A DNA stretch of 64,000 bases from Promethearchaeia archaeon (GCA_029856155.1 JAHQWL010000072.1:1-64000); one strand, 5' to 3'; counted from the stretch's first letter, positions 26,065 through 35,972 are shown. Notes: generated by a model from the letters alone, not told the origin. Made by a program: numbers and translations.

Positions 26065-27567
26065 TTATCTATTTTGAATTGAATCTAGAATGGTACCAGT
26101 CATCGCAATTGTTAGTGTCCCCCCAATAGAAAGCATTGTTATCAAATACTCATGAGTTTGAAATAAAACTACTTGAAGTATCATCATTGTAAATGTTGTT
26201 ACTAAAACTAAACTCCAGAAACCTAAAAGTCTTGTATTAAAGGATCTCTTTATTATATACCGAGTAATTAAAGCTCCAATCGCATACGCAAGAATGATAA
26301 AAAGAGGTATTGGTACCCAAAACTCTTGCAACCAAAAAGTAAAAAGCAATACTGAAGAGAAAACTATGAAGAAATTGATGTAATAAAGCACCCGTCTAAG
26401 TATGTTTTTATTTTGATCTATTTTATACCAGAGAATTCCGAATGAAATGAATAGGATCCATAAAGCAACTAGGTTTACAACCGCATTGAGTATTTCTGCT
26501 ATATCATTTTGGGAAAAAGGGAATGTAACAAGAGTGTATATAGCATAATGATCTCCCCAAAAAGCGTAAATCATCCCATATCCTAGTATTTGAGTAAGTA
26601 AAATATGATATGTGGATTTGCTAATCAAAGAAATTCCTCTTGAAAGCCGTCCTTTTGGGTTCTGAGGTAAAAACTTCATTGCTAGTAGAAATAAAAATGC
26701 AGAATATGGAATAATTAAGAAATGATAATCTCCTCTTAGAAGTGGTACACCATCAACCCTGATTCTATAGGAGAAGAACTGATGTGCTGTAATAAAAGCT
26801 AAACTTATTGGATAAATAATCCACATAAAGAAGTTTCGATTATCATTAAGTTTATATCCAAAGGAAAACCACATTCCTAAGCCAATAGCAGGAAGGTAAA
26901 ATAATACAGAGGTCATAAAAATCGTCACGATATACCCTTCTTCATATGAGGTAATGTTTCCAATCAAGAAAAACAGTGTTAACTGCAATGCTATCTCTAC
27001 CACGAAACATAGAATTAATGTTATAATTGGCTTTTTTGTAAATGCCCAATAGAGTAAAGGAAAGATTAAAATAGATTGGAATAGTAATGGGAGAAACCAA
27101 TTTCCTGGGCCCCAAAATGGTAAGAATCCTAGAAATAAGTGTATAAATCCATGATCTGGATAATATTGCCCATTCCACATGGCAGTAATATTAAATCCAT
27201 ACATAAACAAACCTATAAATGTTGATGCCGCATATAAAACTAGGAATGGTACAATATACCGTAAAATTTTAGTTTTGAAATAACTCCAAGAATACATTTC
27301 CCTTAATGCCTTTGCTTCACTTTTTTGTATTGAGCAACCCATATTAAAGCCCAATATCACTAGAAACACTGGTATTGAGATTCTCTCCCAAAGAGTGACA
27401 GCAATATAAGATTTTACAGTCCAATAAACTATATGATCGAATATAACTAAAAAGATCATTGCTGCTTTTAAGAAATCAACTTGGAAATAATGCGCCCCTG
27501 ATTCAACTAAAGTCTCTTTTTCAGCTTCTTCTAATACTACTTCACTAACTTGTTTTTTAGATGTCAT
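26065..27567 (-). CDS. acyltransferase-3 (OafA-like) membrane O-acyltransferase with extra C-terminal TM helices
   Basis: DFLKAAMIFLVIFDH, IPVFLVILG, RYIVPF, WFLPLLFQ, TYHILLTQ. Confidence 0.85.
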   Translation of the reverse strand: MTSKKQVSEVVLEEAEKETLVESGAHYFQVDFLKAAMIFLVIFDHIVYWTVKSYIAVTLWERISIPVFLVILGFNMGCSIQKSEAKALREMYSWSYFKTKILRYIVPFLVLYAASTFIGLFMYGFNITAMWNGQYYPDHGFIHLFLGFLPFWGPGNWFLPLLFQSILIFPLLYWAFTKKPIITLILCFVVEIALQLTLFFLIGNITSYEEGYIVTIFMTSVLFYLPAIGLGMWFSFGYKLNDNRNFFMWIIYPISLAFITAHQFFSYRIRVDGVPLLRGDYHFLIIPYSAFLFLLAMKFLPQNPKGRLSRGISLISKSTYHILLTQILGYGMIYAFWGDHYAIYTLVTFPFSQNDIAEILNAVVNLVALWILFISFGILWYKIDQNKNILRRVLYYINFFIVFSSVLLFTFWLQEFWVPIPLFIILAYAIGALITRYIIKRSFNTRLLGFWSLVLVTTFTMMILQVVLFQTHEYLITMLSIGGTLTIAMTGTILDSIQNR

Positions 27568-27640: not shown

Positions 27641-27662
27641 AAATAGGAGTCCAATTTTTATT
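27641..27662. promoter_or_regulatory. putative operator, copy 1 (AAATAGGAGTCCAATTTTTATT)
   Basis: Identical to 28510-28531; 74 bp upstream of ATG 27567; near-palindromic core AAATAGGA-G-TCCAATTT. Confidence 0.7.
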
Positions 27663-27764: not shown

Positions 27765-28436
27765 TTATTGTTGAGCACCACAGAACACACAATACCTAGC
27801 ATCTGGTTTAGCTGGGGATCCACATTGAATACATGTTTCTGTATATCCTTCAGATTTAAATTTAATATTGGAAGAATGAGTTTGAACAACTTCCCTTTCA
27901 CTTAAATTAATTCCACATTTTACGCAAAATTTAGGATTTCCTTTTACTTTCGTTCCACAGGAAGGACAATTCATAAGAATTCTTGTACCACAATCTTGGC
28001 AAAAACCACCTTTTCTAGCAAATAATTTTCCGCATTTAGGGCAAAATCTTACTTTTCCGGCTGTATATTCTAGAATTGTGGGGACAATGGCCAAGACCAG
28101 TAAACTTCCGATAGGGATGATCGGAATCCAATATTCATCAGGTTGAAAAACCTCACCTATTATAAGAGCAACAAATACGATAAGAGTTAATGCAAATAAT
28201 GTCCAGATTCCAACAATTCCCATTTTTATCTTCCTTTCAGACAGAATATCTACAATCGTGGCAGCTATAGATAAAACTAATAAAGTACCAATAGGAATTA
28301 TAGGAATCCAAATCTCATCATAAGAAAAAACATCTCCCAATATAAGAGCTATCATTACAATAGTAGTCATTCCAAAAATAATCCATAATCCGATAGTTCC
28401 TATCCTTAATTTTTTTCTAATTCCATGCCATGCCAT
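27765..28436 (-). CDS. membrane protein with duplicated TM hairpin and multiple zinc ribbons (DZR-like)
   Basis: Two 'WIPIIPIG' hairpin repeats followed by six CxxC pairs. Confidence 0.85.
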   Translation of the reverse strand: MAWHGIRKKLRIGTIGLWIIFGMTTIVMIALILGDVFSYDEIWIPIIPIGTLLVLSIAATIVDILSERKIKMGIVGIWTLFALTLIVFVALIIGEVFQPDEYWIPIIPIGSLLVLAIVPTILEYTAGKVRFCPKCGKLFARKGGFCQDCGTRILMNCPSCGTKVKGNPKFCVKCGINLSEREVVQTHSSNIKFKSEGYTETCIQCGSPAKPDARYCVFCGAQQ

Positions 28437-28509: not shown

Positions 28510-28531
28510 AAATAGGAGTCCAATTTTTATT
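28510..28531. promoter_or_regulatory. putative operator, copy 2
   Basis: Identical to 27641-27662; 74 bp upstream of ATG 28436. Confidence 0.7.
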
Positions 28532-28747
28532 ATTAAAATTAAGCATAGATAAGATTTGATAATAGTATTACCATGAAATTAAAAAAGTTTGAATATGAAA
28601 TAAAATCTTTTAAATTCAAGTTTGATATCACCCACATATTATTCAAATTCATTGACGGATTAGAAGATTCCTAAATTTTTATATAATTGATACGTATATT
28701 ATTTAGTTAAGCAGAATTAAAGAAACCGTATAGGGTCAATAAGAAAA

Positions 28748-30730
28748 GTGGATGCCGACAAAAATCAAAATATTTTAGAAAAGCAACTGAAAACGTTGGG
28801 TCAGAAGATTAGGATTGATATTTTAAAAAAACTAAAACATGCTCATACTCCATTATCATTTTCAAAGCTTCAAAAGGAGATTTTTGGAAATGATCTTACT
28901 TCTATAAATTTATCATTCCATCTAAATACATTAAAGAAGAGTGATTTAATTCTATCGTCGGATAATGGATATTCAATTACGTTTTTAGGGGAGCAAATAA
29001 TAGAAAAGATTTTATCTATTGAACAAATTTTAAATAGACAAAATAAGGCGTTAATGATCCGTACTTCGAAATATTCTAAGGAAGTATTTGATATAAATAA
29101 AATTGAGGAATATTTAGTGAAAGAAGGTGAATTGGAAAGATATTTAGCAAGACAAGTTGCCCATGAGGTAGAGGAGCGTTTATCAAAAACAAATATAGAA
29201 TACATGACTGCTCCATTAATGCGAGAGTATACAAATGCAATATTATTAGAGAATGGTTTAGAAGAAGTAAGACACAAGTTAACTCGACTAGGAACTCCTC
29301 CATTTGAGGTATTTAAACTATTTAATTCAAATAATGTGAAGATAACACCAGAAAAATTTATTAAGAAGTTAGGTTCTGACGTTTCAGAGCAATTTTTACT
29401 TTTAAATCTCCTGCCAAAAAACTTAGCTGACTTATATTTATCGGGAGAAATTGCTTTACTTCATTTAAATTACTGGGGGTTAAGACCATTAAGTTTGTAT
29501 ATAAATACTAAAACAATTATCAATTATCTCTTTAGTATTGATTCAAATATTCCGCAGAGAGATAAAAACACTACAGGATATACGCATTTTATTATTAATT
29601 TTATAGATCTTTTGCAACGGCTAAAACAATTTTATTCTGAAGATTTAATTCTAGGCAATTTTAACAATGAATTAATTTCTTATTTAGAATTACCAAAAAT
29701 AAGATCAGCCAATTTTAATTTCTTTATTTCTCAAATTTCCCAATTTAATACTTTTATTAATAATGGTAAATCTCATTTATCTTTAGAATTTAATTACAAT
29801 GAAAAAACAAAAGAACAATTTTCAAATCAGATCCATAATGATATAAATTTTCTAAATTCCTTAGATATGCAGAGTAAAGATCGCATAAAACCATTCCTTA
29901 TTTTTGAAGGCTCTAAGATTTTTACATCAGATCTAGGAAATGGTTTCATAAAAAATCTCATTAAAGGATCCAATAAAAATAGTCTTATTTTTTATAATAA
30001 AGATTTTTCAAATTTAATAAATTCATCTCTTATTCAAATACCGGACCCTAATGAAGATAAAATTATTTTAGATAAGATTTTAATAAATTTGCATATGATT
30101 TCTGTAGAAGCGAACCAAAATGACGACTTATTTTTCGATTTATTACAAAAAAAATTAATTTCTGTCTTTGAATTATTTAATTTTAAGGAGAAATTAGTGC
30201 AACAAAAATTAAATTCTCTTCAGCAATGGGACTCGATAGTCACACAGATTTTTAACAGAAACAAGAGTAAAGCATTTGAAAACTCTGTTAAGTCCATAAG
30301 TTTTTTCGGGTTGAATCAAGCGATTTTAAACCATTGCGGAATAGAACTTGATAGAACCGAAAATAGCGAAGAATTTGCTCTAAAAATCTTGGTATTAATG
30401 AAAAAAATTATTAATGAAAAAAATGAAACAAAAAATGATACTTTTATTCTTAGCTCGCCTCATAGAGATTCATACTTAAGAGATTCTTGGTATAATGGCA
30501 TTGTACCACACACACAAGACATAAATGAATATTCTGCCAGATTAATTAGAACAGCATCAAACCTTTCCCTGAGTAAGAAAATCATATTATTCAAAAAATT
30601 TCAAAAAATCATTGATGGTGGGTGTTTATTTATTGAAAAAAAGGCAAATGATATGTCATTTCAAAAGTTTTTAAAGACTTTATTACAATCCGAAATCGGT
30701 ACAATATCTTTAAGAGATTGCGCATTCTAA
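28748..30730 (+). CDS. ArsR-type wHTH + ATP-cone + degenerate class III ribonucleotide reductase (NrdD-like) fusion
   Basis: 'RIDILKKL...LSFHLNTLKKSDLI...YSIT..G' wHTH; 'IRTS..KEVFDINKI...TAPLMRE' ATP cone; NrdD-like 'RLG', 'INLHMIS', 'SISFFGLNQ', 'DGG'; no C-terminal RxxGY loop. Confidence 0.8.
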   Translation: MDADKNQNILEKQLKTLGQKIRIDILKKLKHAHTPLSFSKLQKEIFGNDLTSINLSFHLNTLKKSDLILSSDNGYSITFLGEQIIEKILSIEQILNRQNKALMIRTSKYSKEVFDINKIEEYLVKEGELERYLARQVAHEVEERLSKTNIEYMTAPLMREYTNAILLENGLEEVRHKLTRLGTPPFEVFKLFNSNNVKITPEKFIKKLGSDVSEQFLLLNLLPKNLADLYLSGEIALLHLNYWGLRPLSLYINTKTIINYLFSIDSNIPQRDKNTTGYTHFIINFIDLLQRLKQFYSEDLILGNFNNELISYLELPKIRSANFNFFISQISQFNTFINNGKSHLSLEFNYNEKTKEQFSNQIHNDINFLNSLDMQSKDRIKPFLIFEGSKIFTSDLGNGFIKNLIKGSNKNSLIFYNKDFSNLINSSLIQIPDPNEDKIILDKILINLHMISVEANQNDDLFFDLLQKKLISVFELFNFKEKLVQQKLNSLQQWDSIVTQIFNRNKSKAFENSVKSISFFGLNQAILNHCGIELDRTENSEEFALKILVLMKKIINEKNETKNDTFILSSPHRDSYLRDSWYNGIVPHTQDINEYSARLIRTASNLSLSKKIILFKKFQKIIDGGCLFIEKKANDMSFQKFLKTLLQSEIGTISLRDCAF

Positions 30731-30767: not shown

Positions 30768-31685
30768 TTAATTAGTCATTAATTCTGCTAAGAGGGCTTT
30801 TCTCATTGGGATCCCGTAATAAGTTTGTTTAAAGTAAATTGCTTTTTCTGAATTATCAACTTCTGGAGAAATTTCTGTGATTCTCGGAAGCGGGTGCATT
30901 AATTTAAAATTGTCTTTTGTTTGTTTAAGATCTTCTTGTCGAAATATGTAAAATCCTTTAATTCTTTCGTACTCTTCTGAATCAACAAACCTTTCTTTTT
31001 GGACCCGAGTCATATAAAGAATATCTAGAATACTTAAAATTTTTCGGAAATCTGTAATTTCTTTATATTTCACTTGTCTTTGTTGTAGAAAATCTTTATC
31101 ACGGTTTCTCATTCTTAATTCTAAAGGGCTTATAAAGTAAACATTTACATTAAAATTTGATAACAAAATTGAGAGTGAATGTGCGGTTCTCCCATATTTG
31201 AGATCACCCATTAACCCTATATTCAACCCATCTAGAAAACCTACTTCTTCACTTATGGTTAATAAATCTAGTAATGCTTGAGTGGGATGTTCTCCACTTC
31301 CAGAACCGGCATTAATAATTGGAATTTTAGCAAATTTTGCGGCCATTATAGCAGCTCCTTCAAGTGAATGTCTCATTACTATGCAATCACTATAATTTTC
31401 AACAGTTCGTATTGTATCTGCAATGCTTTCTCCTTTTTTAATGGAAGACATATCTCCAGAATGGAATCCAATAACACTCCCCCCTAATCTACACATAGCT
31501 GATTCAAAACTAAGACGGGTTCGAGTAGAAGGTTCAAAAAATAATGTAGCTAAGATTTTACCGTGGAGGAGATTTGAATTCTTGATTTCAATCATTTCTT
31601 TACCTTTCTTTATTATATATTCAATATCTTCTCTATCAAACTGCTTAGCACTTATTACTCCTTCACTAAATTTCTCTTTGAACAT
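30768..31685 (-). CDS. pyrB: aspartate carbamoyltransferase catalytic subunit
   Basis: FFEPSTRTRLSF, HPTQALLD, GDLKYGRT, MHPLPR. Confidence 0.98.
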   Translation of the reverse strand: MFKEKFSEGVISAKQFDREDIEYIIKKGKEMIEIKNSNLLHGKILATLFFEPSTRTRLSFESAMCRLGGSVIGFHSGDMSSIKKGESIADTIRTVENYSDCIVMRHSLEGAAIMAAKFAKIPIINAGSGSGEHPTQALLDLLTISEEVGFLDGLNIGLMGDLKYGRTAHSLSILLSNFNVNVYFISPLELRMRNRDKDFLQQRQVKYKEITDFRKILSILDILYMTRVQKERFVDSEEYERIKGFYIFRQEDLKQTKDNFKLMHPLPRITEISPEVDNSEKAIYFKQTYYGIPMRKALLAELMTN

Positions 31686-31846
31686 TTAAAATCTCATTCA
31701 AAATGTTTTTATTAACATTATGTAAATAAGATTTAAATTATTTTTTATTACATTATAGTTTTTCAAAAAGAACCATCAGAACTAATAAAATTTAAAATTT
31801 ATAAATAATTACTATATTTATTCTTAATACTAACGGTCACTAATAA

Positions 31847-35168: not shown

Positions 35169-35972
35169 ATGACCTTCAAATTAAAATTAGAAAATAGTCG
35201 GATATTGAAAGGAATTGTTGAAACTCTTTCAAGCATTATCGATGAAACAGAGTTTCGAGTCACTCCTAAAGAGTTTACAATTTCAGCGATGGATCCTAGT
35301 AGAATTTGTTTATTAAAATTATCTGTTAAAAAGGATAATTTTGATGAATATCAATGTGCCAAAGAATCAAAAGTTGGACTGAATTTAGATGATTTAGATA
35401 AAATTTTAAAAAGATGCGCGGCGACTGATTCTGTTGAAATTGATTTTAATGAAGCTGATCAGAAAATAAAAATCAAAATGCAACGTGAGGGCATGACTCG
35501 CACTAGAACTTTTAGCTTAGCTTTATTAGATATTGATATTGAAGAAATTCCTATGGATAATTTATTAAAGATAGAATATCCTTCAAAATGGGTTATTGAG
35601 CCAGATTTTTTAGTTGAAGCAATAAAGGATGCTGAAATTTATTCCGAAATCCTTAACATGATTTCAACAGAAGGACAAGGATTAATTTTTAGTTCTACGG
35701 GGCAAATTGGTGAAATGGAATATAATCTTAGTGAAGATGATTTAATAGAAACAGATCTTAATGGAACTAGTAGTGGTGCATATTCCTTAACATTTTTAAA
35801 AGCAATTTTAAAAATAGCTTCAATCACAGAAAAGCTAGAAATATCTCTAAAAACTGATCATCCCTTAAAAATGATATTCAATCTTCTTGAAGGTGGCGAA
35901 TTAAGTTACTTCTTAGCTCCTAGAGTCGAAGAAGCTGAATTTGAAGAAGATGAAGATATGGATGAATTTTAA
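35169..35972 (+). CDS. pcn: DNA polymerase sliding clamp PCNA
   Basis: SAMDPSRI, YSLTFL, DHPLKM, SYFLAPRVE. Confidence 0.97.
   Translation: MTFKLKLENSRILKGIVETLSSIIDETEFRVTPKEFTISAMDPSRICLLKLSVKKDNFDEYQCAKESKVGLNLDDLDKILKRCAATDSVEIDFNEADQKIKIKMQREGMTRTRTFSLALLDIDIEEIPMDNLLKIEYPSKWVIEPDFLVEAIKDAEIYSEILNMISTEGQGLIFSSTGQIGEMEYNLSEDDLIETDLNGTSSGAYSLTFLKAILKIASITEKLEISLKTDHPLKMIFNLLEGGELSYFLAPRVEEAEFEEDEDMDEF

Follow-up and report, generated by a model that had tools for sequence, protein, structure and literature searches.

In a 64,000-nucleotide stretch of DNA from a Promethearchaeia archaeon (GCA_029856155.1, JAHQWL010000072.1:1-64000; hereafter the window), a gene with a GTG start located at positions 28748-30730 of the plus strand was found to encode a 660-amino acid protein (P0001) in which a winged helix-turn-helix (wHTH) is joined to an ATP-cone-like domain and to the barrel of a class III ribonucleotide reductase (RNR), NrdD, that has lost its radical chemistry. 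It is reasonably probable that P0001 is a non-catalytic descendant of NrdD that senses nucleotides to regulate DNA-precursor genes and is, in function, the archaeal equivalent of the bacterial repressor NrdR. This reading had been proposed in an original prediction made from the sequence of the window, and it is supported by the adjacency of the gene to RNR genes of the class of its host, by its adjacency to pyrB and pyrI, by a nine-base word (CCGACAAAA) shared with the nrdD leader and by the lack of NrdR in the genomes that carry the gene.

The N-terminal wHTH is an ArsR-like domain of the DUF7347 type (PF24038) that extends over residues 14-88 (28787-29011, plus strand) with 39.6 bits against a cut-off of 27.6. 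HTH_20 also matches residues 17-68, and both this model and the NCBIfam ArsR/SmtB model scored below their cut-offs. In the structural model of P0001 the order of elements in this region (helix-helix-helix-helix-strand-strand-long helix) fits a wHTH. An ATP-cone-like domain (PF03477) with the hairpin IRTSKY follows at residues 103-174 (29054-29269, plus strand), and after it a barrel body (29300-30712, plus strand) with the NrdD fold and without the cysteine loop, the bottom-face cysteine, the zinc ribbon or the glycyl-radical domain. Pfam recognized NRDD (PF13597) in this body at residues 445-650, which correspond only to profile positions 283-499 of 562 (56.1 bits), and the NrdD equivalog TIGR02487 of NCBIfam reached 55.6 bits, far under its cut-off of 326. 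An AlphaFold2 model calculated from a 60-sequence alignment (pLDDT 86, pTM 0.78) was searched with Foldseek, and its top matches were the class III RNRs of P. copri (8p28, E 9e-18), S. thermophilus (9dca), T. maritima (4col) and phage T4 (1h78), with E values between 9e-18 and 1e-10 over the NrdD structures and class I RNRs ranking far lower. A search of the PDB with the single sequence of P0001 gave nothing useful; the profile of the wHTH family matched the PDB NrdD chains by sequence with an E value of 4e-25. The body of P0001 is a ten-stranded alpha/beta barrel homologous to NrdD. The three parts postulated originally, an ArsR-like wHTH at about residues 10-95, an ATP cone at about residues 102-180 and an NrdD-like body, were all recovered, though the cone scored below its cut-off.

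The comparison of P0001 with the true NrdD of its own genome (P0122), carried out within an alignment that included 58 wHTH-bearing relatives, has revealed that the elements of the radical chemistry are gone. The finger loop HSQCCRKF of the true NrdD aligned to gaps in all 58 wHTH-family sequences, the bottom-face cysteine of RPFC was replaced in P0001 (RPLS), and the protein stops (...GTISLRDCAF) ahead of the CxxC..CxxC zinc ribbon and of the RVTGYY (RVxGY) glycyl-radical tail. All the aligned relatives have lost the cysteine loop, the bottom-face cysteine and the glycine tail, except P0130, which keeps the bottom-face cysteine. In a profile alignment, the cysteine of the GCRSF motif of S. 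thermophilus NrdD, which is the catalytic Cys400 (PMC12662201), appeared as an insert relative to the wHTH family. The zinc ribbon is missing from the entire 660-amino acid form; many longer relatives retain it and often carry an R-x-x-G-P-Y remnant as well, and none of them has the cysteine loop. In Bathyarchaeia, many proteins of the family end in ...SFSR[I/V/L/M], cut exactly at the radical glycine. Judged by these motifs, P0001 is catalytically dead, and not by accident. The earlier description of a pseudo-enzyme with no cysteine at the finger-loop position and no zinc site or glycyl-radical loop agrees with these data, also in the same-length orthologues (54-90% identity), which lack both the catalytic cysteine and the glycyl loop; if they had kept them, P0001 could have been taken for a truncated copy.

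The genome of the archaeon (G000; 4.1 Mb, 97% complete) contains a separate, active class III system, which had been proposed as a check of the pseudo-enzyme claim. A true nrdD on contig C83 encodes P0122 (711 amino acids, 462 bits to PF13597), in which SQCCRKF, CPSC...CPKC and RVTGYY are present, and an NrdG-type activase (158 bits), the sole one in the genome over its cut-off, is encoded on contig C24, in line with the earlier remark that no activase gene lies near P0001. No match to the class I/II RNR barrel (PF02867) was found in G000, and the NrdR model TIGR00244 matched neither G000 nor the other genomes sampled from its family. Over parts of its sequence, P0001 has just 22-28% identity to the NrdD of its own genome.

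A second dead NrdD paralogue, P0123 (601 amino acids), is encoded outside the window (G000:C88:79634-81439, plus strand; locus L002:1192-2997). Its identity to the true NrdD is 45%, and it consists of an ATP-cone and an NRDD body without wHTH; RPFC is replaced by RPFS, and neither the finger loop nor the zinc/glycine tail is retained. In the tree P0123 is the sister of its own NrdD, so that it was inactivated separately and more recently. Open reading frames (ORFs) resembling P0123, with 600-650 amino acids, were also found in other genomes of the family.

Conservation of the wHTH-bearing protein was analyzed in 301 sampled genomes of the phylum, 68 of which belong to the GTDB family of the window. 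The 660-amino acid form is present in 64 of these 68 genomes, more than 120 clusters with 54-90% identity to P0001 share a length of 650-665 amino acids, and 15 orthologues (54-74% identity) have 103 invariant columns, densest at residues 100-250; the fused wHTH is nearly invariant among the orthologues. The missing C-terminal domain and the database name of the protein (anaerobic ribonucleoside-triphosphate reductase) would fit an assembly artefact or the decay of a truncated nrdD pseudogene, but this explanation is refuted by the shared length, the carriage by 64/68 genomes, the open frames and the roughly 100 invariant columns, and it can practically be discarded. An exhaustive HMMER search recovered 688 relatives, including proteins of 700-890 amino acids with the same wHTH and ATP-cone, in which NRDD was confirmed by Pfam in 8 of the 10 scanned; the longer relatives checked belong to other Asgard lineages (Jordarchaeia/Freyarchaeota and Atabeyarchaeia). 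Longer forms of 700-780 amino acids, likewise without the cysteine loop, are found in Bathyarchaeia, Nitrososphaeria and further Asgard lineages, and a scan of species-representative genomes yielded 299 loci, the best 80 of which were all from Nitrososphaeria or Bathyarchaeia. In a quick maximum-likelihood tree, all the wHTH proteins were split from the true NrdDs by a single branch (SH-aLRT 100), which fits one ancient duplication plus fusion, and the 660-amino acid form made up a long branch beside its order-level relatives. The family of wHTH, ATP-cone and dead NrdD is old and under strong constraint. By alignment and phylogeny, it is defined by this three-part architecture minus the cysteine loop and constitutes one clade apart from the true NrdDs.

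We know of no earlier class III RNR pseudoenzyme. Full-text searches of the literature, which did not extend to paywalled papers, gave no description of a family combining wHTH, ATP-cone and dead NrdD, and a survey of RNR N-terminal extensions mentions no HTH fusion (PMC9669993). P0001 most likely represents an undescribed architecture predicted to do a job of a known kind.

The genomic context is the strongest functional evidence. The wHTH gene accompanies an RNR gene of the class of its host: in Nitrososphaeria this gene is of the class II type, and in Bathyarchaeia it is nrdD. In 28 of 39 Nitrososphaeria loci, a class II-type RNR (PF02867, PF00317 and TSCPD) is located 55-460 bp downstream on the same strand, a further locus has it at 1.2 kb, and the exceptions are mostly cut contigs; a true NrdD is absent from all three Nitrososphaeria genomes tested, which keep the wHTH gene. 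In Bathyarchaeia, a true nrdD (RVTGYY) is found directly downstream of the wHTH gene in 12/41 loci, and a glutaredoxin gene adjoins it in 12 loci. In one Asgard locus (L050), four genes adjoin one another: nrdD, the wHTH gene, pyrB and pyrI. NrdR was found over its cut-off in just 10 of the 301 genomes of the phylum, and none of those 10 has the wHTH gene.

The second recurrent neighbor is pyrB, which encodes the catalytic chain of aspartate carbamoyltransferase. In the window it is located at 30768-31685 on the minus strand (TIGR00670, 359 bits), convergent with the wHTH gene and 37 bp away from it, and the PCNA gene is found at 35169-35972, as expected from the convergence with pyrB and the proximity to replication genes noted originally. 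This convergent arrangement is kept in all 21 loci of the family of the window. In other Asgard families pyrB also adjoins the wHTH gene in varying orientation, and in two of them the wHTH gene directly follows pyrB at a distance of 0-3 bp, a spacing that implies an operon. Adjacency to pyrB and/or pyrI recurs in Bathyarchaeia and some Nitrososphaeria, so that it is seen in three lineage groups, and pyrB is present in 40 of 102 clustered loci. From this adjacency, a coordination with pyrimidine synthesis may be proposed.

A link between the gene and nrdD is also found at the nucleotide level. The word CCGACAAAA occupies codons 3-5 of the wHTH gene (28755-28763, plus strand) and is found at this place in 17-19 of 21 orthologues. 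Residue 3 varies (Ala/Thr/Ser) yet invariably has an NCC codon, and GAC is the sole codon for Asp there. Elsewhere in the same genes NCC and GAC make up 11% of the Ala/Thr/Ser and 15% of the Asp codons, respectively; the word is thus constrained at the nucleotide level. The nrdD gene of the same genome has its own copy (G000:C83:32642, minus strand), and in 23 of 25 nrdD leaders of the family CGACAAAA (usually CCGACAAAA) is an island of conservation about 60 nt past a conserved TATA-like AAATAAATTTTTATATC. The orientation of the word is the same in both genes, and in both it lies about 60-70 nt past the TATA-like box.

In P0001 an ArsR-like winged helix is fused ahead of the ATP-cone-like domain inherited from the parent NrdD. 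According to the mechanism proposed, the ATP-cone, and perhaps also the former specificity and substrate sites, would bind (deoxy)nucleoside triphosphates ((d)NTPs), the ligand state would alter the oligomeric state or the arrangement of the winged helices, and these would then bind the 5' region of the gene itself and the nrdD leader, tuning the expression of RNR. In a wider and rather doubtful version, all three ancestral nucleotide sites (the ATP-cone, the former substrate site and, at the dimer interface, the specificity site) would be kept, and P0001 would be a multi-input allosteric reader of the whole (d)NTP pool that, through its winged helix, coordinates the reduction of ribonucleotides by nrdD/nrdJ with pyrBI, the first committed step of pyrimidine synthesis.

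Several observations weigh against P0001 as a nucleotide-sensing transcriptional regulator. The score of the ATP-cone (20.4 bits) is just under the cut-off of 25.8, and its hairpin has RT in place of the KR of canonical cones; PF03477 reaches 28-34 bits in four longer relatives, and in the alignment the RT motif is common to the true NrdD of the same genome. The mapping of the specificity-site residues of S. thermophilus NrdD (Gln225 and Glu293) onto P0001 was abandoned because the profile alignment is too uncertain there. In its own genome the wHTH gene adjoins no RNR gene. The word CCGACAAAA is not enriched genome-wide (18 copies versus 22 +/- 12 for shuffled words), and none of its other copies is at a nucleotide-metabolism gene, the other intergenic ones preceding a weak MULE-transposase-like ORF, a major facilitator superfamily (MFS) transporter gene and ORFs without Pfam match. 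It was not found upstream of pyrB and nrdG, nor in the Bathyarchaeia and Nitrososphaeria loci. In addition, the word is not palindromic and lies in both genes on the sense strand of what is probably a transcribed region, so that an RNA-level signal or a different factor would also fit.

A post-transcriptional regulator is the first alternative: P0001 or a partner would read CCGACAAAA as RNA, both in the 5' portion of the wHTH gene transcript and in the leader of nrdD, exerting a nucleotide-responsive control of translation or stability, with the winged helix serving for another contact. The position of the word downstream of the inferred promoters of both genes, here even inside codons, would suit this explanation, as would its lack of the palindromy that is typical of the operators of dimeric wHTH proteins. 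Nevertheless, ArsR-like winged helices bind DNA as a rule, no RNA-binding domain was detected in the Pfam scan of P0001, and archaeal repressors often bind past the start site; a function at the RNA level is considered unlikely.

The dead subunit could also act on other proteins, either by dimerizing with the true NrdD or by docking on aspartate carbamoyltransferase, with an allosteric or scaffolding role. RNRs are dimers, which would allow a dead paralogue to heterodimerize, pyrB is the most conserved neighbor and shares an operon with the gene in some lineages, and the genome has the second dead paralogue without wHTH described above. However, Nitrososphaeria without a true NrdD keep the gene, G000 still has PyrI, the identity to the own NrdD is very low and partial, and the fused wHTH is nearly invariant; this explanation is regarded as improbable. 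That P0001 is still an enzyme, with a chemistry independent of glycyl and thiyl radicals or with a function in the storage or hydrolysis of nucleotides, appears very improbable: the barrel is well conserved, for example in ILDKILINL and SISFFGLNxAILNHCGIELDRT, but all known RNR chemistry needs the finger-loop cysteine deleted here, no new active site is suggested by the sequence, and the fused wHTH indicates a function in binding nucleic acids.

The promoter region of the wHTH gene was compared among 21 orthologous loci in an alignment of the 200 bp preceding the gene. From its conservation, TTCCTAAATTTTTATATA (28668-28685, plus strand) is the putative box of the promoter, with a transcription factor B recognition element (BRE) and a TATA-like sequence, and the conserved block ATTTAGTTAAGCAG (28701-28714, plus strand), about 20 bp past the TATA box, is the probable region of the transcription start. 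A further element, ATATCACCCACATATTAT (consensus ATATCACCyACATATTAT; 28625-28642, plus strand), is located about 26 bp ahead of the BRE/TATA-like box and is kept in 19 of 21 loci whose flanks otherwise do not align. The 5' region of the gene has two conserved candidates for a sequence-specific DNA-binding site, this element and CCGACAAAA. One other exact genomic copy, ATATCACCTACATATTAT, was found at G000:C68:11296-11313 (minus strand; locus L068:4297-4314), between an enoyl-CoA hydratase gene and a 103-amino acid ORF without Pfam match, and has no evident target gene. As an operator of a regulon this element was rejected, because it has this single other exact copy at no telling gene and, at two mismatches, its count equals that of a control pattern. 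Two other candidate words were discarded: the copies of ATATCACC inside nrdD and the dead paralogue are merely coding sequence for YGDIH, and TTAGTTAAG, common to the start region of the gene and to a site far upstream of nrdD, is a chance match because it is kept in no other nrdD locus.

Other repeated or conserved sequences were observed around these genes. An identical 22-bp sequence, AAATAGGAGTCCAATTTTTATT, occurs twice in the window (27641-27662 and 28510-28531), each time 74 bp ahead of the ATG of a minus-strand gene, encoding an acyltransferase (26065-27567) and a zinc-ribbon membrane protein (27765-28436); no pair of this type appeared in 100 shuffles, and the second copy is located in the same intergenic region as the wHTH gene promoter, yet it is part of the divergent gene's upstream sequence. 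The stretch that separates pyrB from the L44e gene divergent to it (31686-31846) contains the long blocks TAATTATTTATAAATTTTAAATTTTATTAGTTCTG and AATAAAAAATAATTTAAATCTTATTTACATAATGTTAATAAAAACAT, which are conserved in the family and may be candidate promoters or a pyrB leader element. Within the 600 bp downstream of the wHTH gene in the Bathyarchaeia loci L110-L150, overlapping words that assemble into TATACAGAATTT and CAGAATTTTATAC recur in 11-15 of 40 loci and may constitute a putative lineage-specific operator between the wHTH gene and nrdD. The 17-mer ACACTCACCCGACAAAA is common to G000:C82:104903 (plus strand) and G000:C86:92420 (minus strand), 13 and 61 nt ahead of ORFs of about 550-565 amino acids, one of them with a weak MULE-transposase match, and these sites are probably the ends or leaders of a mobile element. 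In 8 of the 9 genomes of the GTDB family f29 with an above-cut-off match to the NrdR model, the matches (about 200 bits; for example G232:C93:714-1154) lie inside open frames of 804-850 amino acids, and the ninth frame, of 261 amino acids, begins 319 bases from the contig start; this suggests that in f29, an Asgard family, NrdR is fused to a long protein.

The RNR-specific repressor of bacteria, NrdR, consists of a zinc ribbon and an ATP-cone (PMC9110341, PMC12176259) and is rare in archaea (PMC9110341). P0001 resembles it in the predicted joining of a DNA-binding module to a putative ATP-cone, in the genomic tie to RNR genes and in a probable self-regulation. However, P0001 has no TIGR00244 match, its homology to NrdR is limited to the cone, a winged helix stands in place of the zinc ribbon, and a whole dead RNR barrel of about 470 amino acids is carried; moreover, CCGACAAAA is unrelated to the NrdR boxes, and the wHTH gene is also linked to pyrB/pyrI. 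With NrdD the protein shares the homologous barrel, the inherited N-terminal ATP-cone-like domain and blocks such as NLPR/NLH and GLNEA, and it differs in having an additional wHTH and in lacking the thiyl cysteine loop, the bottom-face cysteine, the zinc ribbon and the RVxGY glycine.

Pseudoenzymes and enzyme-derived regulators offer further parallels. The large-subunit RNR homologues of herpesviruses, such as M45 of murine cytomegalovirus, are catalytically inactive, and like P0001 they keep the fold of an RNR catalytic subunit for a non-catalytic job; however, they derive from class I, act on host cell-death proteins without any DNA-binding domain and have no evolutionary link with P0001. 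BirA, NadR and PutA are enzyme-derived transcription factors with a fused HTH or wHTH, in which the ligand pocket of the enzyme serves as sensor for the DNA-binding domain, as is proposed for P0001. In contrast, these proteins stay active enzymes of unrelated fold, and the enzyme part of P0001 is dead.

The database label 'anaerobic ribonucleoside-triphosphate reductase' mistakenly attributes a class III RNR to aerobic Nitrososphaeria and makes the RNR counts of Asgard genomes too high. As a large and strongly conserved family extending over Asgard archaea, Bathyarchaeia and the ammonia-oxidizing Nitrososphaeria, the wHTH-bearing proteins are a concrete candidate for the missing gene-level regulator of archaeal RNR and deoxyribonucleotide supply and, if this proves true, they would be an instructive case of the allosteric machinery of an enzyme reused as a sensor. 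Should the reading of several nucleotide sites also be true, P0001 would serve archaea as a master switch for the supply of DNA precursors, built unlike NrdR and present in the closest prokaryotic relatives of eukaryotes.

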